Shown: positions 5,580 through 64,000, numbered from the stretch's first letter. The stretch is DNA of 64,000 bases from Clostridia bacterium (GCA_014859095.1 JACUUV010000004.1:17390-81389), one strand, 5' to 3'. The notes: generated by a model from the letters alone, not told the origin. Numbers and translations are program-made.

Positions 5580-5592
5580 AGGAGGTTGCGAC

Positions 5593-6417: not shown

Positions 6418-6422
6418 TGTAT

Positions 6423-7871: not shown

Positions 7872-7917
7872 ACAATTTCCCCCTATTAAATTATAATGGA
7901 TTACAAATATAGTTAAA

Positions 7918-7932: not shown

Positions 7933-7977
7933 ATGCACTCATTAAGGAATTACAACATGTTTATTAATATCTTGTAA

Positions 7978-8021
7978 CAAAAAACGAGAAATAAATTTCT
8001 CGTCATGAAATTTATTTCTCG
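7978..8021 (-). terminator. intrinsic terminator after the response-regulator gene
   Basis: 15-bp stem CGAGAAATAAATTTC / GAAATTTATTTCTCG with a 7-nt loop, followed on the minus strand by TTTTTTGT. It overlaps the stop codon at 8012..8014. Confidence 0.75.
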
Positions 8022-9355: not shown

Positions 9356-9357
9356 TT

Positions 9358-11346: not shown

Positions 11347-11424
11347 TAATCCCTCCTCTGTGGATAAATCTAATAGTCTTATATTATAACGAATCTTTAA
11401 TTAATTCAAGCTACATAAGTGATA

Positions 11425-12042: not shown

Positions 12043-12054
12043 GAGAGAATCTCC

Positions 12055-45994: not shown

Positions 45995-46062
45995 ATCATG
46001 AAGGAATTGTAATAAAAAAGTCAAATTTCTTAAAGATATAGTTTTTTATGAAGGGGAGAAAA

Positions 46063-47517: not shown

Positions 47518-47530
47518 AAAGGTGGTTATT

Positions 47531-47845
47531 ATGAGTAAAATCAGCGACAACTTAAACTATTTTCAGACAAATCATAAAAAAATCTATGAGGCTTATTCCA
47601 ATTACGGAAAGATGATTCATGAAGAAGGTGGACCTCTTGATGAAAAGACAAGAGCACTTGTCAAAATTGCCATTTCATCAGTGGGAGAACATCATTTGGC
47701 GCTTGAAACCCATATCAGAAAAGCTATGAAAGCGGGATGTACACTTGAAGAGATTGAACATGTCATATTGCTTACGGCACCTTCAGTAGGATTTCCAAGT
47801 ATGATGGAATCTTTATTGGTGTTTAGAGAATTCATTGAGAAATAA
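47531..47845 (+). CDS. carboxymuconolactone decarboxylase (AhpD-like) family protein
   Basis: LDEKTRALVKIAISSVGEHHLALETHIRKAMKAGCTLEEIEHVILLTAPSVGFPS is the CMD-domain pattern. Confidence 0.65.
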   Translation: MSKISDNLNYFQTNHKKIYEAYSNYGKMIHEEGGPLDEKTRALVKIAISSVGEHHLALETHIRKAMKAGCTLEEIEHVILLTAPSVGFPSMMESLLVFREFIEK

Positions 47846-47856
47846 GGGGGAATGAA

Positions 47857-49389
47857 ATGATATATATAGGCGTTTTGCTGGCATCCGTTTTTTGGATTTT
47901 GGTCTTTTTCATCCTGTTGAATAGGATGGAAAAAGACAATAAGGCACTTGTAGCATTGATCAAAAAATATGCACAAGGAAATTTTCTTGCGGAAAATGAT
48001 CAGAAGTTAAGATTCAAGAGCAACAAAAGAATGTCAGGTGAAATCAATGGTCTTCAGAAAACCATGAAGGACTGGCTGTACAACATGCTGAAATCTGAGC
48101 TTGAACTATCCAAATACGCCAAAATGTTGCAGGAAAATGCTGAGGAGTCTTTAAAACACATGTCTTTGATCGAATCTCAAATCAACATCATCAAAGGAAA
48201 CTCTCATGATATTGCAAGTGCTTCCCTTGAAAACGCTTCAGTATCAGAGGAGTTGCAGAGTGCCAATGACCAGATGGCGAATGACAGTCATGAGTATATG
48301 GAAGTCACAGAAGGCACGCTTAAGAATATTCAAGTTGGGAAGCATGCTATCGTCGGAGCACTTGAAGGCATCGATGAAGTGGAACTGAAAATGAGGAGCT
48401 CGGTTGAGAAAGTCAATGCATTACAAGATATGATGGACGCCATACAGACCATGACACAAGGTATCTCAAAAATATCCGAACAAACCAATCTGTTGGCACT
48501 CAACGCTTCCATCGAATCAGCACGTGCCGGTGAAGCTGGAAGGGGATTTGCGGTAGTGGCCAATGAAGTCACAAAATTGGCTGATGAAAGTTCAAGACTT
48601 GCTGAAGATATCGATCGTAAAGTCATGGCGATTGCAGAGAGCATGAAATCAGTTGTGCTTGAGATCAACAATGGTATGAAAACAACACAAACACTCAAAA
48701 GCAACAATCAGGAAGCCATTTCTCATCTGGACGAGATGGTCAAAGGTGCTGAAGGCATGCTGACTTTTATTCGTAGCATTTCAATTGGAATCCAAGAACA
48801 ACTCAAGGCGACTGAAGTATTATCAGGCAATGTCGAGAAGCTTGCAGGCATAGCGGCAGATTCTGATGGCGCGACAGTTGAGGCGGGAAAAGATGTTGAG
48901 GATCATCGTCATAAAACGAATGAGAATGCGATACTCGCTCAATCGATCAAAAGCATTTCCCACAGTTTGAATGCTTTTGTACAGATGTTTGATGAGGCAC
49001 TGAGTGAGGAGTTGTTCAGTACAGGTGAAAAACTTGCTGATATTATGAAACATCAAAAAATTGACAACGCTTATTTGCAGAAATTCTCCAAGGAAACCGG
49101 GATTTCCGAGTTCTACATTACGGATGAAAACGGGGTGACGGTATTATCAAATAATCCCGCAGGAATCGGATTCACAATTGAAAATGATCCTACAACACAA
49201 GCTTATCCCTTTTATGCGATTCTTAAGAACCCTAAACATACGGTATCTCAATCCATGATGGTAAGAGATATTGACGGAAAACACTTCAAATTCGTAGGTT
49301 TGTCCCGTACGGATCAAAGTGGAATCATCCAGTTGGGACTCAGTCTAGAAGATTTGTTGAAATTCAGAGGAAGATATGCGTTACTTTAA
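47857..49389 (+). CDS. methyl-accepting chemotaxis protein-type signalling protein with C-terminal extra domain
   Basis: One N-terminal TM helix, then a highly conserved MCP hairpin tip (TNLLALNASIESARAGEAGRGFAVVANEVTKLADES), then a non-coiled C-terminal domain of about 130 aa (...FYITDENGVTVLSNNPAGIGF...). Confidence 0.8.
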   Translation: MIYIGVLLASVFWILVFFILLNRMEKDNKALVALIKKYAQGNFLAENDQKLRFKSNKRMSGEINGLQKTMKDWLYNMLKSELELSKYAKMLQENAEESLKHMSLIESQINIIKGNSHDIASASLENASVSEELQSANDQMANDSHEYMEVTEGTLKNIQVGKHAIVGALEGIDEVELKMRSSVEKVNALQDMMDAIQTMTQGISKISEQTNLLALNASIESARAGEAGRGFAVVANEVTKLADESSRLAEDIDRKVMAIAESMKSVVLEINNGMKTTQTLKSNNQEAISHLDEMVKGAEGMLTFIRSISIGIQEQLKATEVLSGNVEKLAGIAADSDGATVEAGKDVEDHRHKTNENAILAQSIKSISHSLNAFVQMFDEALSEELFSTGEKLADIMKHQKIDNAYLQKFSKETGISEFYITDENGVTVLSNNPAGIGFTIENDPTTQAYPFYAILKNPKHTVSQSMMVRDIDGKHFKFVGLSRTDQSGIIQLGLSLEDLLKFRGRYALL

Positions 49390-50617
49390 TACAATAATAG
49401 TTGGAGGAGGGCCCAGCGGTATCACTTGTTCCTATTACTTGAAGATGAATAATATTGAACATTTGATCATAGAAAAAGGCGAAATGCTCCAGACATGGAA
49501 GCATGAACGCTGGGATTCCTTTTATCTCGTGACTCCAAATTGGATGACCAATCTTCCAGGTTTGGATCACGAGATTCCCTACAATAATGAATATATGTCC
49601 AAAGATGAGATTTTGCGAGTATTTGAGCGTTATCTCGATTTTGTTTGTCCAAATCACATGGAAAATACCACTATAGGCCACATTTCAAAATGCGAAGAAG
49701 GTTATCTTGTTGAGACCGACAGGGGTGAATTCATAGCGGAGCACATCATAATTGCAACTGGGATGTACAATAATCCTTTTGTACCAGAAATAAGTCAAAA
49801 ACTTCCTGAAAATGTCTTTCAGATGCATTCATCCGATTACAGAAATCCGGACCAACTCAAGCCTGGCAATGTTGTAGTGGTCGGTAGCGGGTGGTCTGGC
49901 GTTCAGATTGCACTCGAACTGCGTAGGTTGACAGGTCGAGAGATCTATCTTTCTATAGGAAGCATGACGCCGCTTCCAACTGTATACCGAAATATAAATG
50001 GCGTATACTGGTTGAATCGATTATCCGGTTATAAAAAAGGAAAAGCGATACTCAGTTATCATCTTGATGATTTTAAAAATACCAATATAGCCAACAAATT
50101 GAATCAAAATTTGAAACAATGTCAAATGGAAGGTGTGCAGATATTAGGTCGAATGACTGATGTGGAAGGCGATTTTCTAATCTTTTCCGATTCTCTTCAC
50201 AAGTCCATTGAAGATGCTGATGACTATTTGGACCAGGTCAAGATCAGGATTGAAGAGCACATCGCAATCGAGAAAATGGAAGTTCCAAGTGGAACGCTGG
50301 ATCATTACAATAATCGTTTGGATAAGGATCTGCTTAGAAGAATCACAGAACTGGATTTAGACCAAAATAAAATCGGAAATATCATATGGAGCACTGGCTT
50401 TAAGAGAGATTATTCATGGATTGATCTGCCAATATTTAATGAGAAGGGCTTACCTGTTGTTGAAGATGGGGATTCAATATCTGAAAGCATCTACTTTTGT
50501 AGTTTAGGTCTATCGGTGGACACAAAGCTCAAATCCGCTTTTGGAGTTGGACTTTTTGCTATCAATGAGTCTGCCGAAAGAACTGTTCAAATGTTGCTTG
50601 ATAATACTAAGAAGTAA
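49376..50617 (+). CDS. FAD/NAD(P)-dependent oxidoreductase (flavin-monooxygenase-like, two dinucleotide folds)
   Basis: GxGxxG motifs IIVGGGPSGI and VVVGSGWSGVQIALEL, plus ATG motif (IIIATGMYN). The start overlaps the MCP gene by 14 nt. Confidence 0.7.
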   Translation: MRYFNTIIVGGGPSGITCSYYLKMNNIEHLIIEKGEMLQTWKHERWDSFYLVTPNWMTNLPGLDHEIPYNNEYMSKDEILRVFERYLDFVCPNHMENTTIGHISKCEEGYLVETDRGEFIAEHIIIATGMYNNPFVPEISQKLPENVFQMHSSDYRNPDQLKPGNVVVVGSGWSGVQIALELRRLTGREIYLSIGSMTPLPTVYRNINGVYWLNRLSGYKKGKAILSYHLDDFKNTNIANKLNQNLKQCQMEGVQILGRMTDVEGDFLIFSDSLHKSIEDADDYLDQVKIRIEEHIAIEKMEVPSGTLDHYNNRLDKDLLRRITELDLDQNKIGNIIWSTGFKRDYSWIDLPIFNEKGLPVVEDGDSISESIYFCSLGLSVDTKLKSAFGVGLFAINESAERTVQMLLDNTKK

Positions 50618-50626
50618 GGGGGCACA

Positions 50627-52957
50627 ATGAATACAAAAGATGGTATCGGAACTTCACTTACAAGAAAAGAAAGTTTGGATAAGGTTTCAGGGCGAGTCAT
50701 TTACGGTGGCGACAACATGACACCTCAAATGCTTTATGCTGCACAAAAAACGAGTCCACACGCACACGCGAAAATCATCAAGATCGACACTGAAAAAGCT
50801 AAAGGTATGAAAGGTATCAAAGCGATTTTCACTGGAGATGACTATAAAGACAATTTGGGGTTATATCTTTGTGATAAACCTCCTGTAGCACGAAATGTAG
50901 TAAGACATTATGGTGAAGTCGTCGCAGCTGTGGTTGCTGACACGTATGCCAATGCCACTGCTGCAGCAGATGCGATTGCAGTGGAATACGAAGTGATGAA
51001 ACCAATTTTATCCCCATTGGAAGCACTAAGTGATGATGCTTATACCATTCACGAGGAAATGGGATCATATAGTCACATCAAACCGATTCATCCTGAACCG
51101 GGCACCAACGTAGCCAATAGAACAAAAATCAGAAAAGGCAATCCCACAGAGGCTTTCAAGAGTGCTCATGTGACCATAGAGACTTTTGTTGAGATTCCAC
51201 CGGGAGACCATGTTGCCATGGAGCCCAGAGTGGCTATCGCTGAGATAAAAAAGACCGGATATGTCCATATATTGTCATCTACTCAAGCGCCTTTTGTTGT
51301 AAAGGGGTTGATGCATCAATTCTTCGGGATCGATCAGGGAAAAATCATTGTAAAAGCACCACTGATTGGTGGTGGATTCGGAGGTAAGGCTGGAATCCAA
51401 CTTGAGGGTCTTGCTTATTTGTTGTCTCAAAAAGTTGGAGGTAGACCTGTCAAACTTGTCAACACACGTGAAGAGGATTTGACTGGATCTCCTGGTCATA
51501 TTGGACTTCAAGCCAAAATAAAGATCGCCGCTGATGCTGAAGGAAAAATCATGGGCATGGATATGGATTATTATTTCAACAGTGGTGCTTACGCCGATTA
51601 TGCCGTCAACGTTTCAAGAGCGGCTGCGATTTCTTGTACTGGACCATATTATGTACCCAATATAAGATGTGACTCCATGTGTGTTTATACCAACATGCCA
51701 TTCGCTACAGCATATAGAGGATTCGGACATATTGAAATGTCGTTTGCCGTCGAACGCGCCATGGATGAACTTGCGAATGCGCTGAAGATGGATCCACTGG
51801 AACTCAGAATAAAAAATGGTATCAAACCTCATGACACCACACCTGTTCAGAGTGTGCTCAATGAGAGTACTGGAGACATCATCAAATGCTTCGAAGAAGT
51901 TGGAGCCATGCTCGGTGGTGATATTGGAGCTACTCAGCAGCTTGAAAACAATACAGTTCGTGTCAAAGGCGTAACAGGACTCTGGAAAGCTCCTGCAATG
52001 CCTACCAATACGGATGCAGGTGCTATTCTTACTTTCAATTCCGATGGCAGTTGCAATTTAAACACTGGTGTAGTTGAAATCGGTCAAGGTACAAAGACCG
52101 GGCTTGCTCAAATTGTTTCTGAACGTTTGGGTATTCCTGTGGATAAGGTACATGTTGTCATGGAAGTGGACACAAGCGTTTCTCCAAGTGATTGGGCGAC
52201 TGCTGCCAGTCGAGGTCTTATGATGGCTGGGATGGCAACACTCGAGGCTTGTGAGGATGCAGAAAATCAAATCAAGGAAATCGCATCTGCAGTATTGAGA
52301 GTGCCGAAAAGAGATTTGAAAGTGGATGGTGAACGTGTTTTTGTACCTGATGAACCTAAAATAGGACTGAACCTCTCAGAAGTGGTGCTGGGTTATGTCT
52401 ACCCAAATGGCAACGCCATCTATGGACAAGTGATTGGTTCGGGAAAATATATCGCAAAGCATCTTACAGATCTAGATCCAGAGACCGGAGAAGGTCATCC
52501 GGATCTTGAGTGGACCCTTGGTGCTGAGGGTGTTGAAATTGAAGTGAATTTGAATACAGGCAAATATAAGATTTTAAAAGCTGTTTGTTGCATCGATGTC
52601 GGTAAAGTAATTAGTCCGGCATTGGCAAGAGGACAGATTGTTGGCGGCATGGCAATGGGTATGGGTTACACAACCATGGAAGGATTCACCTTCAATGACA
52701 GGGGACAGGTCACCAATGGTGTTCTTAGAGATTATAAGATCATGCGTTATGGCGACGAACCGGAATATCAAGTCAAATTTCTCGAAACGCCTCAGCAAGA
52801 TGGACCATATGGAGCGAGAGGTCTGGGGGAACAATCCGTAATAGGAATGCCAGGTGCGATCGCAAACGCACTTTCAAGAGCTGTTGGCAAAGGAATGAAT
52901 CAGATTCCATTGACACCGGAGAAAGTTTGGAAGACATCAATGGAGGTGAAGAGATGA
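50627..52957 (+). CDS. molybdopterin-binding large subunit of a xanthine-dehydrogenase-family hydroxylase (cluster 1)
   Basis: a/b-hammerhead N-terminus (R.ES.DKVSGR..Y..D), GGGFGGK, and the catalytic Glu region GARGLGEQS. 776 aa. Confidence 0.85.
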   Translation: MNTKDGIGTSLTRKESLDKVSGRVIYGGDNMTPQMLYAAQKTSPHAHAKIIKIDTEKAKGMKGIKAIFTGDDYKDNLGLYLCDKPPVARNVVRHYGEVVAAVVADTYANATAAADAIAVEYEVMKPILSPLEALSDDAYTIHEEMGSYSHIKPIHPEPGTNVANRTKIRKGNPTEAFKSAHVTIETFVEIPPGDHVAMEPRVAIAEIKKTGYVHILSSTQAPFVVKGLMHQFFGIDQGKIIVKAPLIGGGFGGKAGIQLEGLAYLLSQKVGGRPVKLVNTREEDLTGSPGHIGLQAKIKIAADAEGKIMGMDMDYYFNSGAYADYAVNVSRAAAISCTGPYYVPNIRCDSMCVYTNMPFATAYRGFGHIEMSFAVERAMDELANALKMDPLELRIKNGIKPHDTTPVQSVLNESTGDIIKCFEEVGAMLGGDIGATQQLENNTVRVKGVTGLWKAPAMPTNTDAGAILTFNSDGSCNLNTGVVEIGQGTKTGLAQIVSERLGIPVDKVHVVMEVDTSVSPSDWATAASRGLMMAGMATLEACEDAENQIKEIASAVLRVPKRDLKVDGERVFVPDEPKIGLNLSEVVLGYVYPNGNAIYGQVIGSGKYIAKHLTDLDPETGEGHPDLEWTLGAEGVEIEVNLNTGKYKILKAVCCIDVGKVISPALARGQIVGGMAMGMGYTTMEGFTFNDRGQVTNGVLRDYKIMRYGDEPEYQVKFLETPQQDGPYGARGLGEQSVIGMPGAIANALSRAVGKGMNQIPLTPEKVWKTSMEVKR

Positions 52958-53775
52958 TCGCATACAATCTTGATTACTTTAAACCAGAGACAACTGAAGA
53001 GGCGTATGAATGCATGAAAACTCTAAAAGAGGACAAAGTCAACGCGCTATATTATTCCGGTGGCACTGAGGTGATTACCAATCTCAGAAAGGGTGCGTCT
53101 AAAGCAGATGCGGTAATAGACCTGAAAGGAATTGTCGAAATGTCAGAAATCCTTGTCGAGGATGAATATATCGTTGTTGGAGCAAATGTTCCGCTGAATG
53201 TGATGATAGAACATCCGGAACTGGAATCTGTAATGCCTATTCTGAATAAAATTGCTGACCATACAGTCAGAAATGCATTGACCATCGGGGGAAACATTTG
53301 TGGAAAATTGCCATTTAGAGAGGCTGTTCTCCCTTTGTTGGCTTTGAATTCAAGCATAAAATGGGTTGATGAGAGCGGAATTAAAGAATCTTTGCTTAGA
53401 GATGTTTTTGATAAAAGATTGAAATTACCACCGAATGCTTTTTTGTATCAGATTATGATCCCTAGAAATGCTGGTGGCCAAATGATATCAAAGAGAATGG
53501 AAGCGCACACTGAAGTCGATTATCCGATTTTACATGTTGTGATGAACATTTCTGATACTGAAGTGTTCGTTGGTTTATCCGGATTCTCGAGTTTTCCGGT
53601 TTATCAGCTGATACCAAGAAATGTGTACGACGAGTGGTCTGATCCGGTAGGTTCCATTGCCGGTTTGTTTGAAAAAGATGCCAAATCGGATGAGCGTGCC
53701 AGCAAGGAATACCGAGTTCATCTTTTAAAGAACCAAATCGCTTTGTTTACCGGAGGTGCATATGATTCATTATAG
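52954..53775 (+). CDS. FAD-binding subunit of Mo-hydroxylase (CoxM/XdhB-like, cluster 1)
   Basis: FAD_binding_5-type N-terminus (Y..P.T.EEA......, YSGGTEV). ATGA start/stop overlap with the large-subunit gene. Confidence 0.8.
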   Translation: MIAYNLDYFKPETTEEAYECMKTLKEDKVNALYYSGGTEVITNLRKGASKADAVIDLKGIVEMSEILVEDEYIVVGANVPLNVMIEHPELESVMPILNKIADHTVRNALTIGGNICGKLPFREAVLPLLALNSSIKWVDESGIKESLLRDVFDKRLKLPPNAFLYQIMIPRNAGGQMISKRMEAHTEVDYPILHVVMNISDTEVFVGLSGFSSFPVYQLIPRNVYDEWSDPVGSIAGLFEKDAKSDERASKEYRVHLLKNQIALFTGGAYDSL

Positions 53776-54253
53776 TGGAAATGTCAGTATTCAGTTGAAT
53801 GTCAATCGTGAAATCCATGAAGTGGTTGTGATGCCTCAAGATACATTATTGAGAGTAATGAGAGAAAAGATTGGATACACAGGCCCTAAAGCGGGATGTG
53901 AGAACGGAGATTGTGGGGCTTGTACGGTTTTGATGGATGGAAAACCTGTTAAGGCATGTCTCATGCTTGCAGTTGAAGCAGTAGGAAAAGAAGTATTGAC
54001 CGTAGAAGGTCTTGAAGATACCGAGATTCAAAAGGCATTCATATCCGAAGGTGGATTCCAGTGTGGTTTTTGTACAGCTGGATTTCTTATGAACGCATTT
54101 GCATTGCTTGAGACAAATCCTGATGCGGACGAAGCGGAAAAGAAAGATTGGCTCAGCGCCAATCTGTGCCGTTGTACTGGATACGAAGGTATAGAAAAGG
54201 CACTGACTCTCGCACAAAAGAGAATTCAGGAAAAGAATAATAATAAAAGATAG
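53762..54253 (+). CDS. [2Fe-2S]-binding small subunit of Mo-hydroxylase (cluster 1)
   Basis: The Cys motifs CENGDCGACTV, CGFCTAG and CRCTGY are the two 2Fe-2S sites of CoxS/XdhC-type small subunits. Confidence 0.88.
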   Translation: MIHYSGNVSIQLNVNREIHEVVVMPQDTLLRVMREKIGYTGPKAGCENGDCGACTVLMDGKPVKACLMLAVEAVGKEVLTVEGLEDTEIQKAFISEGGFQCGFCTAGFLMNAFALLETNPDADEAEKKDWLSANLCRCTGYEGIEKALTLAQKRIQEKNNNKR

Positions 54254-54284: not shown

Positions 54285-55496
54285 TTACGCATTTAGTGCC
54301 ATTCGCTCATTTGTAAGTCTTTTATAGGTATTGTCGATGAATTCCAAAACATTTTTGATTTCTGGATATTGTATAGTGTCTTTATAAGTGGTAGAGATAT
54401 TTTCAATCAGTTTCATCAGATCGGATAATGCCTGCTTATAAAGCTTGTCAATATCAAAATTTGGAAAATCCTTTTGATTTTCAATGTGTCGATCCAATTC
54501 ATCGAGAATGGATGTAAGGACTTTCTCGTATTTCTTTGCATCCCTTCCAGGTTTATCCAAAGTTTCATAAATGACTTCTTTGACCTTCGGAATATCCTCT
54601 TCTTTCTGCCAGAATGAAAATTGAAGGGCATTTAAATCTTCTGGGATACAATGGGTTCTACCTTCAAATAGTGCACTTGCCTTGACCAGATTTCTGCTGA
54701 GTTTCAATCGTCTTGGTGAAATGGAGATATTGTGCTTTTCCTCTAGTTGAGTGGCAATGGTCACCATGCTTCTCGCTATTTCGGAACTCATCTTTATATT
54801 GGGAAGTTCGTCTTGGATCAACATGAGTTCTGATAATTTGATTCTGGATTCACAGGTCAAATCATCGTCCATCAGAATCATCTTAACTTTATTGTCGGGA
54901 TCTTTTAAAGGTTTGAGATGATACCGTGCCAGGAATCTGTCGTGAAGTGCCTGAAGTTTGAAGTCTGTTTCTTCAGCGTCTAGATCATCCTTTTGTTTTG
55001 GGAAAAAATTGGTGTCAGCCATGAAGAATCGAAGGTTGGTTTTTATGGTCTCGGTTCCATTTTTGAACTCACCTTCGTTCAGAATGGTCAATAAGCCAGA
55101 GTTGGCTACTTGATCGCTGACTCTGTAGAATTCTGAGCAAAAGGCTATCACGGCGTCAGGTAAAAAACCTTTGTAATGGCGTTTGATAATTCCGTGTGTT
55201 TTAAAATAGGCGATGTCCGGAGCCCCGAAAATATTGTTTGGGGATATGTCAGCTCCCATTTGAATGTGAAAATAGGGGGTGCCTTTTGCTTGATCGAAAT
55301 CCATGTGAGCCACAAATTCTCTTAGAATGGCAGATTTTGCTATCCCGGGTTCTCCCAGTACAATCATGTGGGTCCTTGAAATCATGGATAGCATCAGACA
55401 GGTCACAAATTCATCCACTTCATAGTATTTGGAAGCGATGTGGTTGCGGATATCGTGTAATTTTTGGCTTGCAGCTATGAGTTCATTTGTTTTCAT
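54285..55496 (-). CDS. MoxR-class AAA+ ATPase, RavA-like
   Basis: Walker A GEPGIAKS (55355..55332). GFLPDAVIAFCSEFYRVSDQVANSGLLTILNEGEFKNG aligns with E. coli RavA [37 protein letters not shown]. The Walker B Asp is replaced by Ser. Confidence 0.75.
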   Translation of the reverse strand: MKTNELIAASQKLHDIRNHIASKYYEVDEFVTCLMLSMISRTHMIVLGEPGIAKSAILREFVAHMDFDQAKGTPYFHIQMGADISPNNIFGAPDIAYFKTHGIIKRHYKGFLPDAVIAFCSEFYRVSDQVANSGLLTILNEGEFKNGTETIKTNLRFFMADTNFFPKQKDDLDAEETDFKLQALHDRFLARYHLKPLKDPDNKVKMILMDDDLTCESRIKLSELMLIQDELPNIKMSSEIARSMVTIATQLEEKHNISISPRRLKLSRNLVKASALFEGRTHCIPEDLNALQFSFWQKEEDIPKVKEVIYETLDKPGRDAKKYEKVLTSILDELDRHIENQKDFPNFDIDKLYKQALSDLMKLIENISTTYKDTIQYPEIKNVLEFIDNTYKRLTNERMALNA

Positions 55497-55509
55497 AAAT
55501 CGTATCCTC

Positions 55510-57519
55510 CTATATCAAAGTGTATAATCGTTGATTCGTCAAGTTGTTCCAATTGCCTAAATTATCGCCTCTGATGTCGAGGATCTCATCTGAAATGAGG
55601 CCGATGTCACCGTAGTCGTTATAAGTATATGAATGCATAATTATGGTATAGAGTTTGAACTTTCGTTCTCTTTTGAGCTCGAGGAATTTCTCTCTGAAAT
55701 TCGGATGAATCTCACATTGACCATCTGTAATGAATAAAATATCGCTGTTTTTATGCTTGGCTTGTTTTATGATTTCCATGGCGGTGGAAAGTGGTTTTTC
55801 AAAGTCTGTTCCACCGCATATGAAAGTATCCATGATGTCCAGCACATCTCCCGCAGTTATTGTGAGCGGGTTGATTTCCTTGATGTATAAAGGCTCAGAC
55901 GCAGATGCGAATTGGATCAGTACCAACTTCCGTTTTTGAATTTTTGAAATTTCCAGAATCGCCAAAATATGTGCAAGTGTCTCATCGAATTTCTTTCCTT
56001 GCATGGATCCTGAACCGTCGTAACATAAAATGATAGGTCCCTTTCTTTTATCTTTTTTGGCTGCCATCTCAATAGTCAGAAGATTGTCATTGAGATATCT
56101 GTCGTAGAAATCATTCTCAAATGCATCGATATCCAGTGCGATACCGATGAATTCATCCTCAATGAGTCCGTCGATGTCGTTAGAGTAACGTATGCCATCT
56201 TGTGGCGTTACTTTCTCCCGCTTTTTTTTATAGGCTATGGTGCTGGCGTGTTTTTTGTTTTTTCCCACTTTGTTGATGAATTCTATGAATCGGGCAGATT
56301 TAGTGCGACTATACAAGGATATGATCTCATCAAATGTAAGATCGGAAATACTGCGTCCTGGTATACCAAGCGTCTTTATTTGATTGTTGAAGTGATCGAG
56401 TTTTTCACTAGTGGCTACTATGATGTCATCCCAGTCCAGCGACTCCATTTTTTTCCTGAGGTCATCGCGTTTGTCTATGAGTTCGTTATTAAGTTCAGGG
56501 ACCATTTTCAGTATCTCGGTTTCAGAAGGTGGGTTCTTTGGGGATGCTTTTCCATCGATGATCTTATTTTCATCCACATGTTCATTGTCGTCAATAGTAT
56601 CCATTTGTTTATGGAAAGGAGAGGCTCCTTGTGATTCGCCGATGGAAAAGGATTTTATAAAAGGTTTGAACCGGGACTCCAGATCTTCTTTGACATATTC
56701 TTCGTAATCTGAATCGACTTCGCCTTCTTTTCTAAGTACATCTTCCAGGGCGTCCTCGACAGCGGTGGATGTTTCCGATTGATCGAGATATTCCCTCACT
56801 TTTTCAATGTAGTCAGTAAGTGGCTTTTTATCCTCGTTTTTATAGGGTATTGAAGGTAATACTTTATCAGGTTGGGAGTCTGAATGATCAGAGTGCCTCG
56901 AAGACGCATCATTTTTACTGAGCAGTGGGATCAATGTCATCAAAAATTCTTTGGGGTCTTCTGTTTCAGATGAAGATAGAGATAAAATCTCATTGATCAT
57001 ATTGATTTCTATTGAATTCAGGATATCAGTAAATTCATAGTTTTGAAAGTCGTTACTTATAGTGTTTGACAATAAATTGTTGTATGACTCTATATGCTCT
57101 TCCATCTCGCTCAGAAATTCGGTTCCCCTCAGTTTTTCGAGCAGTTGATCCAGTAGGAGTTTCATGGCAAGATAAGATTCACCTTTTGAGCCTGCGCACC
57201 TCATCCTAAGAATTGTAGTTCTGGGATGTGAGGCGAATGATTCAATGATGACATCGTGCATTGAAACGGAATCTTCGGAGTTGAGTTTTATTACAATTTT
57301 GTATAAAATAAGATATAGATCCATTGAAATTGCATCGAACTCGGGAATGAGTCTTTGACCGTTGTCGATGAACTGTCTCAACAAATTTGAGTTTGCAAGG
57401 GTTTCCGTGAATATTAGCTCATCCATTAAGTTGTGGGTTACTATACTTTGCAAAACATCACCGCCTTTATATGATGTAGAAATGTTTACCCTAAAGTACA
57501 CTTCATAATCTGATAACAA
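55510..57519 (-). CDS. VWA-domain protein of the CoxE/ViaA type (long N-terminal region, acidic linker, C-terminal MIDAS VWA)
   Basis: The last 176 aa (55513..56040) have a complete MIDAS (ILCYDGSGSM, GGTDF, ITDG). The junction ...LLTIEMAAKKDKRKGPIILCYD is typical of the CoxE/ViaA family. The start is uncertain: the track start TTG 57519 has no SD and lies inside a sigma-54-like motif. The alternatives are TTG 57453 and ATG 57426. Confidence 0.7.
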   Translation of the reverse strand: MLSDYEVYFRVNISTSYKGGDVLQSIVTHNLMDELIFTETLANSNLLRQFIDNGQRLIPEFDAISMDLYLILYKIVIKLNSEDSVSMHDVIIESFASHPRTTILRMRCAGSKGESYLAMKLLLDQLLEKLRGTEFLSEMEEHIESYNNLLSNTISNDFQNYEFTDILNSIEINMINEILSLSSSETEDPKEFLMTLIPLLSKNDASSRHSDHSDSQPDKVLPSIPYKNEDKKPLTDYIEKVREYLDQSETSTAVEDALEDVLRKEGEVDSDYEEYVKEDLESRFKPFIKSFSIGESQGASPFHKQMDTIDDNEHVDENKIIDGKASPKNPPSETEILKMVPELNNELIDKRDDLRKKMESLDWDDIIVATSEKLDHFNNQIKTLGIPGRSISDLTFDEIISLYSRTKSARFIEFINKVGKNKKHASTIAYKKKREKVTPQDGIRYSNDIDGLIEDEFIGIALDIDAFENDFYDRYLNDNLLTIEMAAKKDKRKGPIILCYDGSGSMQGKKFDETLAHILAILEISKIQKRKLVLIQFASASEPLYIKEINPLTITAGDVLDIMDTFICGGTDFEKPLSTAMEIIKQAKHKNSDILFITDGQCEIHPNFREKFLELKRERKFKLYTIIMHSYTYNDYGDIGLISDEILDIRGDNLGNWNNLTNQRLYTLI

Positions 57520-57531: not shown

Positions 57532-57675
57532 ATTTACTAATAATGTTTGTTGTTTACTGCTAAATAAAAAGACTATATCGTCTGAAAATTTAGTCTATTA
57601 CAATAATGAGATAAATGTGTAAAAAAAGATATAATAAGTGTGAGACGTACTGAATTACTTTTGGAGGTCATTAAT

Positions 57676-58506
57676 ATGAAAACATTTGAATACTTAAGAC
57701 CAACGTCATTAAAAGAAGCGTTGGACATTCTAAAGAATCATGACGGAAATGTATCCATTCTAAATGGAGGAACTGACCTGATTGTTAGAATGCGTGAGGG
57801 TCACTCATCACCGGAAGTTGTTATGGACATCAAAAAAATACCGGGACTCGATCAGATACAAGTGGATGAGGACCGTATCACAATAGGTGCTACGGTATTA
57901 CTCAATGATCTGGGATTGAACGAGGTCATTAAAACGAGATATCCTTACCTGGCACAAGCCGCTTTGTCAGTCGGATCCAAACAAGTCAGAAACAGAGCGA
58001 CATGTATAGGAAACATTTGCAACGCATCGCCACTTGCAGACACGGCAACTCCACTTTTGGCACTAAATGCAGATGTCCACATTTATGGGGAAGAGGGTAT
58101 AAAGACTGTACCGCTCAAAGATTTTTTTGTGTTTGTCAGAAAGACAGTTCTTAAACCTAATGAAATAGTAACGGGAATTTCATTCAAACAAGATCCGGAA
58201 GCACTTGGCATATTCACAAAAATGTCACGACGCAAAGAAGTGGATCTTTCTACAGTGTGCTCCACTGTAATGCGTACCGGTACGGAATATAGAATCAGTT
58301 GCGGAGCTGTCGCTCCAACACCGGTGAGACTCTTCAAGACGGAAGCGTTTTTAAGTGGAAAGACATTGACTGGAGAAGTAATCGAAGAAGCATGCAAATT
58401 GGCTGAAGGCGAAGTCGTTCCAATCAGTGACATCAGGGCTTCAGAAGCTTACAGACGTGAAATGGTCGGAGTAATGCTTCGTCGCGCACTCTCAGAATGG
58501 CTATAG
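57676..58506 (+). CDS. FAD-binding subunit of Mo-hydroxylase (cluster 2)
   Basis: MKTFEYLRPTSLKEALDIL......ILNGGTDL is FAD_binding_5-like, with a CO-dehydrogenase flavoprotein C-terminal domain (SDIRASEAYRREM). Confidence 0.85.
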   Translation: MKTFEYLRPTSLKEALDILKNHDGNVSILNGGTDLIVRMREGHSSPEVVMDIKKIPGLDQIQVDEDRITIGATVLLNDLGLNEVIKTRYPYLAQAALSVGSKQVRNRATCIGNICNASPLADTATPLLALNADVHIYGEEGIKTVPLKDFFVFVRKTVLKPNEIVTGISFKQDPEALGIFTKMSRRKEVDLSTVCSTVMRTGTEYRISCGAVAPTPVRLFKTEAFLSGKTLTGEVIEEACKLAEGEVVPISDIRASEAYRREMVGVMLRRALSEWL

Positions 58507-58516
58507 GAGGATAATC

Positions 58517-58987
58517 ATGAAAACTATGATAGAATTTACACTCAATGGCGAGGTTGTCGAGTGTTTGGTAGATAATCAAAGAACACTTTTAAAAATGATC
58601 AGGGAAGATTTTGACCTCACTGGAGCCAAGGAAGGTTGCGGCGCAGGTGAGTGCGGTGCTTGTACAATCATTGTGGACGGCAAGGCACTCAATGCTTGTC
58701 TCGTTCTCGCTGTTGAAGCGGACGGTACTGAGATTACAACTATAGAAGGTTTGGTAGTGGATGGAGAACTTGATCCGCTTCAAGTATCTTTTATAGACAA
58801 TGCTGCACTTCAATGTGGCTATTGCACTCCTGGCATGATCATGACCGCAAAAGCGATGCTGGAAGAAAATCCACATCCAACTGAAAATGAAATCAGAGAA
58901 GGCATCAGCGGCAACTTATGCCGTTGTACCGGCTATAAAAAAATAATAGAGGCAATCCAAGTGGTTGCTGACCAAAATAAAGCGTAG
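58517..58987 (+). CDS. [2Fe-2S]-binding small subunit of Mo-hydroxylase (cluster 2)
   Basis: Cys motifs [18 protein letters not shown] and CRCTGY. Confidence 0.9.
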
Positions 58988-58990
58988 GAG

Positions 58991-61312
58991 GTGGGAGACT
59001 TGAAATTTGTAGGAACTAGCGTAAAACGTGTCGACGGAGTAAAAAAAGTCACAGGCTCCTTAAAATATGTGGATGATATCAAATTATCAAAAATGCTTTA
59101 CGTCGCTGTAAAGAGAAGTCCTCATCCACACGCAAAAATATTGAGCATCAATTTTGAAAAAGCTTTGGCCATCAAAGGAGTCAAAGATATAATCACTGGA
59201 GATTTATTCACAAAACGTGGAGGACTTTACCTTGAAGACAAGAACTTTTTAGCTGTAGGTAAAGTAAGATATAGAGGAGAAGCTGTAGTGGCTGTTTGCG
59301 CTATTTCAGAGGAAATTGCCCAATCTGCGCTTGAGTTCATCGATATTGAATACGAAGTGTTACCGGCAGTCACCAACGCCAAAGATGCCATGAAACCGGA
59401 TTCGCCTCTTGTGCACCCGGATTTGGGTGAGTATAAATGGGCTCCTGTATTTTTCCCGGTACCTGGCACTAATATTTCCAATCACTATACACTTCGAAAA
59501 GGGGATGCGAAAAAAGCATTTGAGACTGCGGATTTTGTTGTTGAAAACGAGTTTTATGTTCCTCACGTGCAGCACGTACCTATCGAGACACATACAGCAA
59601 TCGCTCAAATGGACGCTGATGGGTTCATGACAGTATGGGCAAGTTGTCAATCGCCATATGCTGTGAGACAAGCCCTTTCAGAAGCTTTCGATCTCCCACT
59701 CAATAGACTGCGCGTACTTTCACCTGCGGTTGGTGGCGGATTTGGATCAAAAGCGGGTACCACACTGGAAGGCATTTTGATTCCTTTTGCAAAAAAATTC
59801 CCGGATCACCCGGTCAAACTGACTTATTCAAGACAAGATGAGTTTGAAAACGCTTATGTGAGACAAGGTCTACATGCGAGAATCAAAACAGGCGTCAATA
59901 AAGATGGTAAAATAATCGCGGTTGAAAATGAGTTCATTTGGGATGGAGGCGCTTACAATGAGTATGGCGTCAACATCGCAAAAGCGGCCGGATACGCTTC
60001 GGCAGGACCATATGACATTGAAAACGTATATACGGATTCATATTGTGTTTATACAAATCACCCTGTAGGGGGACCATACAGAGGATTCGGCATGAGTGAG
60101 ATTCATTTCGGTATCGAACAAAACCTCGATATGGTAGCTGAGCGAATTGGTATTGATCCAGTAGAAATCAGACGCATCAACGGAATGAAGCCGGGTGGCG
60201 TTACCGGTACCGGTGAAGTCGTCGAAGTTGCCGGATTGATGGAATGTCTGGATATCGCTGTGGATGAAATCAAATTCTACGAAAAAAGTGAAACTGTAAG
60301 TCCCACAAAAGTAAGGGGCAAGGGCATCGCATGCGGTTGGAAGGCCCCATCCATGCCGACAAATGCGGCTTCCTCGGCAATCATCAAATTGAACGAGGAT
60401 GGAACCGCCCATCTACTTGTAAGTGCACAGGATATCGGACAGGGTTCTGATACGGTCATGACACAAATAGCTGCGGAAGTACTTTCCATTTCACCAGAGA
60501 AGATTACCATTAGAACCGGTGATACGGACCAAACACCATATGAGTGGCAAACGGTTGCTTCCAGAATCACTTATTCTGCGGGTAGAGCAGTCTTTGAAGC
60601 AGCAAATGATGCAATGAACCAGTTGCTCGAACTTGCCCAAATCAAAATAGGGCTCTCCAAACGCGACTTGGAACTTAGAGACGGTTATGTGGTCTCAAAA
60701 ATCTATCCAGATAGAAAAGTAGCTATTTCAGAACTTGCTCTGGGACTTACTTTTGAGGATGGATCAGGTATTCATGGACCGATTATCGGTCGTGGTGCAT
60801 TTATTCCTCCAAATGTTCGTAACGCAGACAAAAAAACCGGTCTTGGGGAGCATCCGGTTGTATTCTGGACGTATGGAGCTCAAGGTATTGAAGTTGAAGT
60901 TGATCTCGAGACTGGGGCAGTAAAAATTCTCAAAGTCGTCTCAGTATTCGATGTCGGTAAAGTCATGAATCCACAATTGCTTGAAGGACAAATGGAAGGT
61001 GCGATTGCACAAGGTATTGGAACAGCACTTTTTGAGGAACTTATGCTTAAAGAGGGTAAAGTTCTCAACCCATCATTTGTCGATTACAAGATTCCTACAG
61101 CAGACGATATGCCAGAGATGGTGATAAAGTTTGTGGAAAATCCGGAGGATACTGGCCCATTTGGAGCCAGAGGAGTTGCCGAACCGGCGATGGTTCCTAC
61201 CGCACCCGCAATAGCGAATGCGATATACGCTGCTACTGGTATTCGCTTAAATACAATGCCGCTGACTGCTGAAAGAGTATTGAATGCAATCAAGGCGAAG
61301 AACAACGGTTAA
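58991..61312 (+). CDS. molybdopterin-binding large subunit of a xanthine-dehydrogenase-family hydroxylase (cluster 2)
   Basis: VKRVDGVKKVTGSLKY.DD, GGGFGSK, and the catalytic Glu region GARGVAEPA. The true start may be TTG 59000, which is 8 nt after SD AGGAGG, rather than GTG 58991. Confidence 0.85.
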   Translation: MGDLKFVGTSVKRVDGVKKVTGSLKYVDDIKLSKMLYVAVKRSPHPHAKILSINFEKALAIKGVKDIITGDLFTKRGGLYLEDKNFLAVGKVRYRGEAVVAVCAISEEIAQSALEFIDIEYEVLPAVTNAKDAMKPDSPLVHPDLGEYKWAPVFFPVPGTNISNHYTLRKGDAKKAFETADFVVENEFYVPHVQHVPIETHTAIAQMDADGFMTVWASCQSPYAVRQALSEAFDLPLNRLRVLSPAVGGGFGSKAGTTLEGILIPFAKKFPDHPVKLTYSRQDEFENAYVRQGLHARIKTGVNKDGKIIAVENEFIWDGGAYNEYGVNIAKAAGYASAGPYDIENVYTDSYCVYTNHPVGGPYRGFGMSEIHFGIEQNLDMVAERIGIDPVEIRRINGMKPGGVTGTGEVVEVAGLMECLDIAVDEIKFYEKSETVSPTKVRGKGIACGWKAPSMPTNAASSAIIKLNEDGTAHLLVSAQDIGQGSDTVMTQIAAEVLSISPEKITIRTGDTDQTPYEWQTVASRITYSAGRAVFEAANDAMNQLLELAQIKIGLSKRDLELRDGYVVSKIYPDRKVAISELALGLTFEDGSGIHGPIIGRGAFIPPNVRNADKKTGLGEHPVVFWTYGAQGIEVEVDLETGAVKILKVVSVFDVGKVMNPQLLEGQMEGAIAQGIGTALFEELMLKEGKVLNPSFVDYKIPTADDMPEMVIKFVENPEDTGPFGARGVAEPAMVPTAPAIANAIYAATGIRLNTMPLTAERVLNAIKAKNNG

Positions 61313-61344
61313 CGAAGAAGCTATTAATTTAGGGGAGGGGTTTT

Positions 61345-62583
61345 ATGTCTAAAAAAAATGGGCAAGCAGTTAATGTCAATGAGCACGCAATTACTGATGT
61401 ATCGGCACTTGGAACACCCAAAATGCTCACATTGGGCTTACAGCACGCATTTACAATGTTTGGTGCTACGGTACTTGTTCCAATCATCACAGGTCTAGAC
61501 GTATCGGTAGCATTGTTCTTGGCCGGTGTAGGTACTCTTTTATTTCACCTTGTAACAGGTGGTATGGTACCTGCATTTTTAGGATCTTCATTTGCATTCA
61601 TTGCGCCAATGCTCGCTGTGGCAAGCAGTCACGGACTTGATTATGCGCGAGGCGGTATCGTTGTCGCTGGTATCATCTATCTGATTCTTGCGGGTTTGAT
61701 GCAAGTATTCGGTACAGACAGAATCATCAAGTTTTTCCCACCGATTGTCACTGGTCCAATCATCCTTGTTATCGGTCTTAAGCTTGCACCGGTAGCTATT
61801 GATATGGCATCTTCCAATTGGCTATTGGCAATCATTGCATTCACCATCGTGACTATTGTCAGCGTATTTGCAAAAGGATTCTTAAAAGTAATTCCTGTTA
61901 TTATCGGTTTGATTGGCTCTTACATTATTGCTGCAGTATTCGGATTGATTGATTTCACTCCAATCAATGATGCGGCAATCTTCGGAGTTCCAGCATTTTC
62001 ACTTGCAAAATTCAATATTGATGCCGTGTTGACTGTAGCTCCAATAGCACTTGCAACTATGGTCGAGCACATCGGTGACGTTATTGCAATCGGTGCAACT
62101 GTAGAAAAGGACTTTATCAAAAAGCCTGGTTTATCCAGAACACTTCTTGGTGATGGTCTTGCCACATCGGTTTCAGCTATGTTTGGTGGACCTGCGAATA
62201 CTACTTACTCTGAGAATACAGGCGTATTGGCACTTACAAAAGCTTGGGATCCAAAGATTATGAGAATCGCAGCTGTATTTGCAATTGTTTTGGGTCTTGT
62301 GCCTAAATTAGGTGCACTGATTGGAACTATCCCAACAGCAGTAATTGGTGGTATCTCCATAATTCTTTTCGGTATGATCGCGGCTATCGGTGCAAGAACA
62401 CTTGTTGAAAACCAAGTGGATTTCAACAAATCCAGAAACTTGATCATTGCAGCAGTTATAGTTGTTTTAGGACTTGGTGGAGCAGTGCTTCCAATCAACA
62501 TTGGCGCATTGGCCCTCAACATTGAAGGTATGGCTCTTGCAGCAATCGTCGGCATTTTCTTAAACATCGTTTTACCAGAATAA
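61345..62583 (+). CDS. NCS2/NAT-family nucleobase:cation symporter, uracil-permease (UraA/PyrP) type
   Basis: LGLQHAFTMFGATVLVPIITG, FLGSSFAFIAP, MVEHIGD and the NAT signature ENTGVLALTK align closely with E. coli UraA (SLQHLFAMFGATVLVP, YLGSSFAFISP, EH.GH, GENIGVMAITR). Confidence 0.75.
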   Translation: MSKKNGQAVNVNEHAITDVSALGTPKMLTLGLQHAFTMFGATVLVPIITGLDVSVALFLAGVGTLLFHLVTGGMVPAFLGSSFAFIAPMLAVASSHGLDYARGGIVVAGIIYLILAGLMQVFGTDRIIKFFPPIVTGPIILVIGLKLAPVAIDMASSNWLLAIIAFTIVTIVSVFAKGFLKVIPVIIGLIGSYIIAAVFGLIDFTPINDAAIFGVPAFSLAKFNIDAVLTVAPIALATMVEHIGDVIAIGATVEKDFIKKPGLSRTLLGDGLATSVSAMFGGPANTTYSENTGVLALTKAWDPKIMRIAAVFAIVLGLVPKLGALIGTIPTAVIGGISIILFGMIAAIGARTLVENQVDFNKSRNLIIAAVIVVLGLGGAVLPINIGALALNIEGMALAAIVGIFLNIVLPE

Positions 62584-62607
62584 TGAAGTACGCTTCTCGT
62601 TAATCTA

Positions 62608-62640
62608 TTATGCCGGTAAGCAGCTTGCCGGCATAATTTG
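62608..62640 (+). terminator. putative terminator after the permease gene
   Basis: TTATGCCGG-(loop region)-CCGGCATAA followed by TTTGTT. The T-run is weak. Confidence 0.5.
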
Positions 62641-62753
62641 TTAGTTGGTTACAACAATAATGAAATATAACGCAAAACATTGTATCTCAACAACAATAAA
62701 TAGTGGAATCAATACACAGAATATTTAGTATAATATTGTTGGGAGGTATAATC

Positions 62754-64000
62754 ATGCAAAATAAAATGGGAGTTCGACTGAACGAAATCATTTCTCTTGA
62801 AGCTTTTGAAGGATGTGAAGTAATTAGTGGTTCAAACGGACTATCCAGACCAGTCACCAAAGTCAATATCATGGAAGTCCCCGATATCGTTCAGTGGCTT
62901 CAACCAGGAGAACTCTTACTAACGACAGCTTATTCCATTAAAGACAATGTTTTCGAGTTGAATGAACTGATTCCGAAAATGCATGAGATCGGCGTCGCAG
63001 GACTTGGACTCAAAATGAAGCGTTATATTGAAGAGTTGCCACCATCTGTAATCGAATTATCCAATCAATTGGGATTTCCGATCATAAAGATTCCAATGGA
63101 AGTATCTTTCAGTGATTTGATCACTTCCGTTCTTACTGCAGTTGTAAGCACCCAAACCAGTTTGTTGATACAAATTGACGCATTCAACAATCAACTCAAG
63201 GACATCATGCTGAGAGGTGGTGATTTGAGGGAGATTTGCAATATGATTGGGGACGTCGTCGCCGCTCCTGTCGCCATCACAGAAGAATTGTTCAAAGATT
63301 TTGTCATCAGCTCAAAGCACGAGCATGAAGAGGAAATTGAAGAAATCGTCAATAAAATGCTATTTAAACGTTCTGATCAGTTTAGAAGAATATACAGAGA
63401 TCAAGGCATTGAAACCGCAGTGGATGTCATTAAAGGCCATCCGGTGAAACGCTTAATGATTCCAATTTTCTCTGATGAGGTCCTTTACGGGCAGGTGATC
63501 ATTTGGAATATAGATGAAAAGGTCGAAGAAAAGACACTTTTCATGATTGAGGCGGCGGTATCGCTCATAGCACTACATTCAACAAAGAAATTGTCCATTT
63601 ATGAAAATGAAAACAAACATAAGATTGAGTTTATCGAGGAATTGCTTTCTCCCCAGGAGAGTCAGCAACAAAGAGCAATCGAAAAATCCAATTATTTTGA
63701 TTTTGATAAAAATAAGGCACATGGTGTGGTTTTGGTTAAGACTGTTGATGCTCCTTATGACGTCAGAATGACGCCTAACAACACACAAATCATGAAACAA
63801 CTGAATTCGAAACTGGTCAGCGTTGTCGAAAGAATGCAAAGACATTACAAAGGCACCTTGCTTTATGGAAACAAAAGTGACAGAGTGATATTCTTACTCA
63901 GTTTTGATCCTTATGCATCCCATGAGGAAAGTAAAAATGCAATGATCTCATTTTCCAATGAATTGACCAATTTCGCCAAATTCGAAAATATAGACAAAAA
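62754..64000 (+). CDS. PucR-family (purine catabolism regulator-like) transcriptional regulator, N-terminal about 415 aa; 3' end outside window
   Basis: SD GGGAGG before ATG 62754, and the frame stays open to the window end. MQNKMGVRLNEIISLEAFEGCEVISGSNGLSRPVTKVNIMEVPDIVQWLQPGELLLTTAY is the typical PucR N-terminal domain. This ORF is not in the supplied track because it has no stop inside the window. Confidence 0.75.
   Translation, partial: MQNKMGVRLNEIISLEAFEGCEVISGSNGLSRPVTKVNIMEVPDIVQWLQPGELLLTTAYSIKDNVFELNELIPKMHEIGVAGLGLKMKRYIEELPPSVIELSNQLGFPIIKIPMEVSFSDLITSVLTAVVSTQTSLLIQIDAFNNQLKDIMLRGGDLREICNMIGDVVAAPVAITEELFKDFVISSKHEHEEEIEEIVNKMLFKRSDQFRRIYRDQGIETAVDVIKGHPVKRLMIPIFSDEVLYGQVIIWNIDEKVEEKTLFMIEAAVSLIALHSTKKLSIYENENKHKIEFIEELLSPQESQQQRAIEKSNYFDFDKNKAHGVVLVKTVDAPYDVRMTPNNTQIMKQLNSKLVSVVERMQRHYKGTLLYGNKSDRVIFLLSFDPYASHEESKNAMISFSNELTNFAKFENIDK

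Follow-up and report, generated by a model that had tools for sequence, protein, structure and literature searches.

A molybdenum hydroxylase operon labelled xanthine dehydrogenase is a candidate uracil/thymine oxidation locus in a Clostridia bacterium

Which compound is oxidized by the molybdenum hydroxylase of operon B? This operon lies in the last part of a 64,000-nt stretch from a Clostridia bacterium (GCA_014859095.1, JACUUV010000004.1:17390-81389; contig C92:17390-81389), referred to here as the window. The stretch belongs to a metagenome-assembled genome of 2.98 Mb that is 99%-complete; near-identical contigs carry the labels "Clostridiales bacterium" and "Firmicutes bacterium UBA5201". 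Operon B encodes, all on the plus strand, a medium subunit that binds flavin adenine dinucleotide (FAD) (57640-58506, 288 aa; PF00941, PF03450), a 2x[2Fe-2S] small subunit (58517-58987, 156 aa; PF01799, PF00111), a molybdopterin-binding large subunit (Mo subunit; 58991-61312, 773 aa; PF01315, PF02738, PF20256) that is our candidate uracil/thymine dehydrogenase, and an NCS2/NAT permease of the UraA/RutG (uracil) type (61345-62583, 412 aa; PF00860). All Pfam domains of the three enzyme subunits exceed their cut-offs, placing the enzyme in the xanthine oxidase/dehydrogenase superfamily. A first-pass annotation of the window had doubted the default label xanthine dehydrogenase and had named a uracil/thymine dehydrogenase as one candidate. 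We suggest, with a probability of roughly 60% and on the basis of sequence and gene content, that operon B would provide uptake and the first oxidative step of a conserved anaerobic cluster for uracil/thymine catabolism that yields adenosine triphosphate (ATP).

Genes that lie beyond the window give the candidate strong contextual support. The contig runs 28 kb past the window, and the rest of the cluster, starting with a gene for a PucR-family regulator, extends about 10 kb into this DNA. The 5' part of the regulator gene follows the permease gene inside the window, as the first-pass annotation had described (62703-64000, plus strand; PF07905, PF17853, PF13556). The complete protein has 583 aa (L007:1093-2844) and heads a downstream unit in which, up to the MoeA gene, every gap is at most 51 nt or the genes overlap. 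Downstream of PucR, this unit encodes AllH, AllF, a protein of 59 aa, AllG, a cyclase-family hydrolase, a coenzyme A (CoA)-transferase, XdhC, YqeB, YqeC, MocA and MoeA (L007:2855-13097, equivalent to C92:81854-92096). It therefore holds together all three subunit families of AllF-AllG-AllH, the oxamic transcarbamylase of Escherichia coli, which as a purified enzyme interconverts oxalurate and carbamoyl phosphate plus oxamate (Kim and Kim 2024, PMC11326118). AllH belongs to PF11392 (DUF2877) and AllG, present in a single copy in the genome, to PF06545 (DUF1116), while FdrA/AllF scores 507 bits against the FdrA model NF004760 (cut-off 433); the AllF, AllG and AllH homologues are 37%, 48% and 25% identical to the subunits of the E. 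coli enzyme. The 59-aa open reading frame (ORF) between AllF and AllG (L007:5355-5534, equivalent to C92:84354-84533) corresponds to the C-terminal end of E. coli FdrA and, thus, AllF is split here, with its last ~55 residues on a separate ORF. ORFs of 56 to 59 aa occupy the same position in Acidaminobacter, Maledivibacter and Alkaliphilus, and locus L040 has a longer AllF (569 aa) without a called small ORF.

The other members of the downstream unit fit the route set out below. The cyclase-family hydrolase (PF04199) keeps the HxGTHxDxPxH binuclear-metal motif of kynurenine formamidase, the overall relation being distant (E 2e-8). The closest solved relatives of the family-III CoA-transferase, SUGCT and YfdE, act on dicarboxylates, and its score of 346 bits on the CoA:oxalate transferase model is about equal to those on other dicarboxylate transferases. 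YqeB (336 bits, cut-off 220) and YqeC (158 bits, cut-off 73) serve in NCBIfam as markers for molybdenum enzymes that depend on selenium. A SelD gene with one in-frame TGA is also present in the genome (C96:56114-57037); it probably encodes a selenocysteine-containing selenophosphate synthetase, which indicates that the organism uses selenium. With YqeB and YqeC adjacent and SelD in the genome, the operon-B hydroxylase is probably selenium-dependent.

The first-pass annotation had reported that no barbiturase or AtzD-like gene is present in the window and that the pathway could, therefore, not be completed from what is visible there. The first statement stands and extends to the genome: the AtzD/barbiturase family had no match in the 99%-complete genome in a search in which the control models were unmatched too, and the same AtzD model detects the family in 9 other Bacillota genomes. 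The gap in the pathway closes with the flanking DNA beyond position 64000, in which there is no barbiturase gene but in which the cyclase and the AllFGH trio would take the places of barbiturase and ureidomalonase.

The association of these genes recurs in other genomes. Orthologues of the operon-B Mo subunit (63-85% identity) are found in Fusibacter, Acidaminobacter, Alkaliphilus, Maledivibacter and Proteiniborus, and are widespread among Clostridia of the Peptostreptococcales type; genome contigs scanned with this one Mo protein yielded 8 loci only, mostly from the same species, and a 400-genome sample of the class held two orthologues only (63-64% identity). The complete set is also present in Acidaminobacter hydrogenoformans, Maledivibacter halophilus, Alkaliphilus peptidifermentans and two further genomes. 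In one genome, XdhC, the FAD, FeS and Mo subunits, AllH, AllF, AllG, the cyclase, a CN-hydrolase and the CoA-transferase are encoded in a single tight operon, and on a Dethiosulfatibacter contig the order is cyclase, FAD, FeS, Mo and AllH, i.e., the genes are shuffled while their linkage is kept. When metagenome contigs were scanned with an AllG alignment, 80 loci were obtained, 18 of them on contigs of at least 15 kb. These 18 contigs encode the cyclase in 17 cases, the Mo subunit in 15, an NCS2 permease in 10 and the CoA-transferase in seven, and none carries an AtzD-family gene.

Several lines of evidence support the assignment of the permease to the uracil type. First, the permease matches UraA structures with E values of 1e-82 to 5e-84, and among the carriers of E. 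coli K-12 it scores 284 bits to UraA and 261 to RutG compared to 114 to UacT, 81 to XanQ and 63 to XanP. Its identity to both UraA and RutG is 42%, over the whole core, and 28-31% to UacT, XanQ and XanP. Second, in a maximum-likelihood tree that had E. coli carriers as its only references (PyrP, PbuX and PucJK of Bacillus subtilis were not included), the permease groups with UraA/RutG and is separated from XanQ/XanP/UacT by a 100/100 split, so that the uracil-type classification of the first-pass annotation holds and clustering with xanthine/urate transporters is not seen among these references. Third, the NAT signature ENTGVLALTK (62212-62241, plus strand) places Glu290 of the permease in the UraA Glu290 column, and the equivalents of UraA Phe73, Glu241 and Glu290 are all retained. 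The motif MVEHIGD (62059-62079, plus strand) had also been taken as a close match to UraA/PyrP; this is correct for the Glu241 equivalent but not for the His245 column, in which the permease has Asp. Fourth, the Glu-Asn signature is present in all 17 linked permeases among the 80 metagenome loci. At least three motif variants can be distinguished, some very near UraA, which suggests that uracil-type carriers were recruited repeatedly. Altogether, the permease resembles UraA and RutG (UraA structures 3QE7 and 5XLS) in core identity, Glu241, Glu290, Phe73 and the Glu-Asn signature, and differs from them in the His245 and Gly289 columns, the latter filled by Ser, and in that its gene sits in a catabolic rather than a salvage operon.

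The active site of the Mo subunit was compared with that of bovine xanthine oxidase, in which Glu802 and Arg880 function in purine binding (PMC3624778). The contig encodes four Mo hydroxylases in all, and the bovine enzyme was aligned to one of them, paralogue C (C92:79-2385); this alignment was combined with one of the four contig paralogues and E. coli XdhA, XdhD and PaoC, which is off by one residue around the Gln767-equivalent motif, so that this motif does not enter the comparison. In operon B, Ala255 of GGGFGSKA (59732-59755, plus strand) falls into the Glu802 column and Lys331 of NIAKAAGY (59972-59995, plus strand) into the Arg880 column. The Mo subunit of operon A (50627-52957, plus strand), which belongs to the same GGGFGxK-Ala-Gly clade (GGGFGGKA, 51368-51391), carries Ala and Arg at these positions, paralogue C agrees with the bovine enzyme in having Glu and Arg, and Gln fills the Glu802 column in paralogue D, XdhA and XdhD. 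There is no exception to the Ala among 6 named orthologues and 31 AllG-linked homologues (40-83% identity), and all 31 read GGGFGxK-Ala-Gly. The Arg880 column holds Lys or Arg in most homologues and Asn in one subclade; Lys331 keeps the positive charge. Thus, the register of the alignment agrees with the earlier claim that both large subunits lack the xanthine-orienting Glu. The rule attached to this claim, that bona fide xanthine dehydrogenases have Glu at this position, is too strict; because E. coli XdhA and XdhD carry Gln there, the missing Glu alone proves little. Similarly, the catalytic Glu near the C-terminus is kept in both subunits as described (GARGVAEP, 61163-61186, plus strand, equivalent to bovine Glu1261; GARGLGEQ, 52811-52834, in operon A), but this column is filled in all seven aligned Mo subunits, PaoC included, and is, therefore, not discriminating.

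Family models provide a further reason to doubt the default label. The best NCBIfam match of the operon-B Mo subunit is the alpha subunit of 4-hydroxybenzoyl-CoA reductase (4-HBCR) with 578 bits at a cut-off of 995. None of the xanthine dehydrogenase (XDH) equivalog cut-offs is reached, the scores and cut-offs being 552 and 780 bits for XdhA, 428 and 784 for PucD, 288 and 850 for XdhB, and 392 and 830 for Se_dep_XDH. Neither large subunit, that of operon A or that of operon B, reaches any NCBIfam equivalog cut-off, and the operon-B FAD subunit also stays under every one, matching the 4-HBCR beta model in two separate stretches only. The operon-B Mo subunit is 32-35% identical to E. coli XdhA, and the operon-A subunit is 38% identical to the operon-B subunit and 36-45% identical to the AllG-linked homologues. 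In sum, the enzyme resembles the XDHs of cattle and Rhodobacter capsulatus and E. coli XdhABC in its three-part domain set, the Glu1261 equivalent and the GGGFGxK and RGFG motifs, but differs from the bovine enzyme in having Ala for Glu802 and Lys for Arg880 and in missing all equivalog cut-offs. All motifs quoted in the first-pass annotation (GGGFGSKA, GGGFGGKA, ENTGVLALTK, MVEHIGD, GARGVAEP and GARGLGEQ) translate as given there from their coordinates.

We suggest the following route. The UraA-type permease would import uracil and probably thymine. The XDH-family hydroxylase, probably selenium-dependent, would hydroxylate C6 to give barbiturate or 5-methylbarbiturate, and the KynB/cyclase-family metallo-amidohydrolase, as a stand-in for barbiturase, would open the ring to N-malonylurea (ureidomalonate). 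By analogy with E. coli AllFGH acting on oxalurate, the AllH/AllF/AllG-like enzyme may then convert N-malonylurea and phosphate to carbamoyl phosphate and malonamate; N-malonylurea is oxalurate, the proven AllFGH substrate, plus one CH2. Carbamoyl phosphate would yield ATP through carbamate kinase, the gene for which is on another contig of the genome. Malonamate could be converted to malonate by an amidase, for which an amidase-signature enzyme and, in relatives, a CN-hydrolase are the candidates: an amidase-signature enzyme that is 50-60% identical to the operon-A amidase adjoins the module in Maledivibacter and several metagenome contigs, and a CN-hydrolase is encoded inside the operon in other loci. 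With the family-III CoA-transferase, malonate would proceed to malonyl-CoA and then acetyl-CoA. PucR would regulate the cluster, and XdhC, YqeB, YqeC, MocA and MoeA, together with a MoxR/VWA pair encoded next to operon B, would mature the cofactor. Taken in full, this scheme would amount to a complete energy-conserving anaerobic oxidative pyrimidine pathway, with a first gene assignment, to a selenium-dependent enzyme, for EC 1.17.99.4, a new barbiturate-opening enzyme of the cyclase/KynB fold, and N-malonylurea as a second substrate class of AllFGH-type enzymes; we consider the chances of the scheme holding in all these parts to be about even. Sodium-pumping biotin decarboxylase beta subunits are encoded at two loci of the genome (C48:4646-5731 and C131:2124-3110), and either could act on malonyl- or methylmalonyl-CoA from the proposed pathway.

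Several points weigh against a uracil/thymine route. All of its steps are inferred from gene content. A look through sequencing runs gave the probable source metagenome and small shares in others, with no usable RNA run among them. We know of no characterised uracil dehydrogenase sequence that could serve as a reference and, to our knowledge, barbiturate ring opening is not known for the cyclase family. Because 4-HBCR alpha, the family model that the Mo subunit matches best, represents a reductase, the catalytic direction of the enzyme is only assumed. The cluster itself contains no gene for carbamate kinase, malonamidase or malonyl-CoA decarboxylase. The nearest amidase gene is 10 kb upstream, in operon A, and the closest solved structure to its product is a peptide amidase, which neither supports nor excludes a role as malonamidase. 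Anaeromicrobium and Proteiniborus have the Mo operon with the permease and no AllFGH genes within 10 kb. Among the AtzD loci of Bacillota and the enterobacterial plasmid considered below, no cluster joins the GGGFGxK-Ala-Gly Mo clade with a true barbiturase. Finally, the permease has Asp in the His245 column, as have XanQ and XanP, and Ser in the Gly289 column, and it scores 370 bits at a uracil-permease equivalog cut-off of 477; on account of these differences, it could carry a uracil analogue.

A related substrate is the alternative that best survives. Here, the same logic of hydroxylation, ring opening and N-acylurea phosphorolysis would apply to another ureide-type heterocycle, with an aza-uracil or substituted uracil, a pyrimidinone, or a hydantoin/imidazolone oxidized towards parabanate as candidates; in the last variant, true oxalurate would be the substrate of the AllFGH homologue and oxalate that of the CoA-transferase. 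The features of the permease just described are consistent with this, as is the CoA-transferase, which scores about as well on the CoA:oxalate transferase model as on others. Moreover, AllFGH-like trios elsewhere serve AtzD-family enzymes and a cysteine hydrolase. When the AtzD/TrzD/barbiturase family was searched in 400 genomes of the phylum, 9 loci were found (L041-L049), and in 8 of these 9 Bacillota loci AllH/F/G genes are beside the gene for the AtzD-family ring-opening amidohydrolase. The Mo subunit, the cyclase and the CoA-transferase are absent from these loci, as they are from the plasmid described next, and the NCS2 permease of the AtzD-linked modules is of the Gln type. The L041 operon, annotated in full, ends with carbamate kinase, and the same AtzD and AllHFG module with carbamate kinase is present on a conjugative enterobacterial IncX5 plasmid (L134, Citrobacter farmeri NZ_CP081318.1). 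An AtzD enzyme, a Gln-type permease and AllHFG in one module suggest an ATP-yielding cyanurate or barbiturate route. That AllFGH-like trios recur after a ring or amide hydrolase and with carbamate kinase supports the carbamoyl-phosphate step in kind, and is no proof that barbiturate is an intermediate in the operon-B cluster. A third AllFGH-like context occurs in a cultured organism: the megaplasmid EAL2_808p of Peptoclostridium acidaminophilum (L133, 5574-16177) encodes PucR, two 'xanthine permeases', a cysteine hydrolase with the fold of biuret hydrolase, AllH, FdrA, AllG and carbamate kinase. A Rhodococcus opacus plasmid that matched AllG was set aside because the context is unrelated.

Against a substrate other than uracil or thymine, the module-linked permeases have the uracil-type Glu-Asn signature without exception and across their motif variants, whereas the AtzD-linked modules have Gln-type permeases and no CoA-transferase. 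Hydantoin carriers known so far belong to NCS1, and uracil and thymine are by far the commonest natural compounds of such shape. We, therefore, regard a different heterocycle as possible but rather unlikely.

It is much less probable that the default annotation is right and operon B encodes a xanthine/hypoxanthine dehydrogenase or purine hydroxylase of the ordinary kind, perhaps dependent on selenium. This idea would account for the PucR-type regulator and for YqeB/YqeC as neighbours, as in the purine cluster of E. coli; XdhA is the second-best family model, and E. coli XdhA and XdhD likewise lack Glu in the 802 column. However, the XdhA score stays under its cut-off, Ala fills the Glu802 column across the whole clade, the permease is split with full support from XanQ/XanP/UacT, and the conserved AllFGH, cyclase and CoA-transferase partners are left unexplained by known purine routes. 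In addition, the same contig has a separate uricolytic cluster of the reductive type upstream of the window (L009, C92:1-18000; genes at 79-2385, 3665-12000 and 11969-15497), which means that operon B is not needed for xanthine or urate. This cluster encodes YgeY, a carbamoyltransferase, pyridoxal-phosphate enzymes, a HyuA-like hydantoinase, an SsnA-like hydrolase and a DHO_dh-type reductase, and holds paralogue C, with its Glu802/Arg880 equivalents, followed by a second FAD/FeS/Mo set with paralogue D. The corresponding reductive uric-acid cluster of E. coli and Clostridioides difficile comprises XdhD, YgfK or UacX, SsnA, HyuA, YgeW, YgeY and YgeX (PMC12507026). The operon-B cluster resembles it in its association with anaerobic nucleobase catabolism, an XDH-family enzyme, YqeB/YqeC and possible ATP formation via carbamoyl phosphate, but shares none of its hydrolases.

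Least probable of all is a reductive enzyme that, like 4-HBCR or E. coli XdhD, would strip a heterocycle or acyl-CoA of an oxo or hydroxy group, the thioester being provided by FdrA and the CoA-transferase: although 4-HBCR alpha is the best match in NCBIfam and PDB, XdhD reduces urate to 2,8-dioxopurine (PMC12507026) and the cluster has a CoA-transferase and an FdrA-type protein, the matching of the 288-aa FAD subunit to the 321-position 4-HBCR beta model in two stretches indicates that the extra segment of 4-HBCR beta is apparently missing, FdrA here accompanies AllG and AllH in a trio that has been demonstrated to act as a carbamoyltransferase rather than as a CoA ligase (PMC11326118), and the ring hydrolase and the uracil-type permease would be left without a role.

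The enzyme activities of the oxidative pyrimidine route, to which we tentatively assign operon B, have been known for decades. This route is one of four recognised for pyrimidine breakdown, the others being the reductive, Rut and URC routes (PMC12507026), and for the aerobic actinobacterium Rhodococcus erythropolis JCM 3132 uracil/thymine dehydrogenase (EC 1.17.99.4), barbiturase and ureidomalonase have been described (Soong, Ogawa and Shimizu 2001, as cited in PMC11898903). A literature search, with most subscription journals outside it, gave no description of the operon-B cluster and no gene assignment for EC 1.17.99.4, in line with the earlier remark that the genetics of this enzyme are poorly defined. 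The route proposed here shares with that of Rhodococcus the sequence uracil, barbiturate, N-malonylurea and malonate and the use of a multi-subunit Mo/FAD/Fe-S hydroxylase in the first step. By contrast, operon B belongs to a strict anaerobe and its enzyme probably depends on selenium, a cyclase-family hydrolase would replace the AtzD-family barbiturase, and the ureide would be phosphorolysed to carbamoyl phosphate rather than hydrolysed to urea. With E. coli AllFGH, the cluster has in common all three subunit families and the proposed chemistry, in which an N-acylurea and phosphate yield carbamoyl phosphate and an amide. It differs from the E. coli AllFGH/AllK system in that AllF is split, the gene order is H-F-G, and neither allantoin/ureidoglycolate genes nor a carbamate kinase gene are found within the cluster; moreover, the proposed substrate N-malonylurea is one carbon longer than oxalurate. 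Given the lack of allantoin genes and carbamate kinase in the cluster, we classify the trio as working like AllFGH and not as an oxalurate enzyme.

If the uracil/thymine reading is correct, genes can be named for the first enzyme of the oxidative pyrimidine route, an "oxidative" route is open to anaerobes, with the ureido group as a source of ATP, the AllFGH enzyme type acquires a wider substrate range, and a systematic mis-annotation as "xanthine dehydrogenase" can be corrected in many Clostridia and metagenome bins. Because several cultured carriers of the cluster exist, the hypothesis is directly testable.

The layout of operon B is consistent with co-transcription of the enzyme and permease genes, as the first-pass annotation had thought likely. 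The spacing between the Mo and permease genes is 32 nt and includes a strong ribosome-binding site, AGGGGAGGGG; no terminator-like site was found in this gap, and the Mo gene adjoins a permease gene in 10 other loci also. A terminator-like hairpin with a 14-bp stem (62607-62637, plus strand) closes the four-gene unit, and because its T tail is weak, read-through into PucR is possible. Divergent to operon B, on the minus strand, lie genes for a MoxR-type AAA+ ATPase (54285-55496) and a VWA protein (55510-57519), both recognized by Pfam and together spanning 54285-57519. The same divergent pair is beside the orthologous operon in Acidaminobacter (L010) and UBA5201 (L022). This conservation fits a dedicated role in maturation or repair, and the two proteins are probably helpers of the operon-B enzyme.

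Operon A, further upstream in the window (46048-54253), encodes in addition to its Mo, FAD and FeS subunits the amidase mentioned above, a CMD protein, a methyl-accepting chemotaxis protein (MCP) and a flavoprotein. In Proteiniborus ethanoligenes (L038:6822-20379), a Mo orthologue with 60% identity to that of operon A directly adjoins the operon-B orthologue, and an MCP homologue is encoded just upstream of the B operon. The hydroxylases of operons A and B may, therefore, act on related substrates, possibly with chemotaxis towards them.

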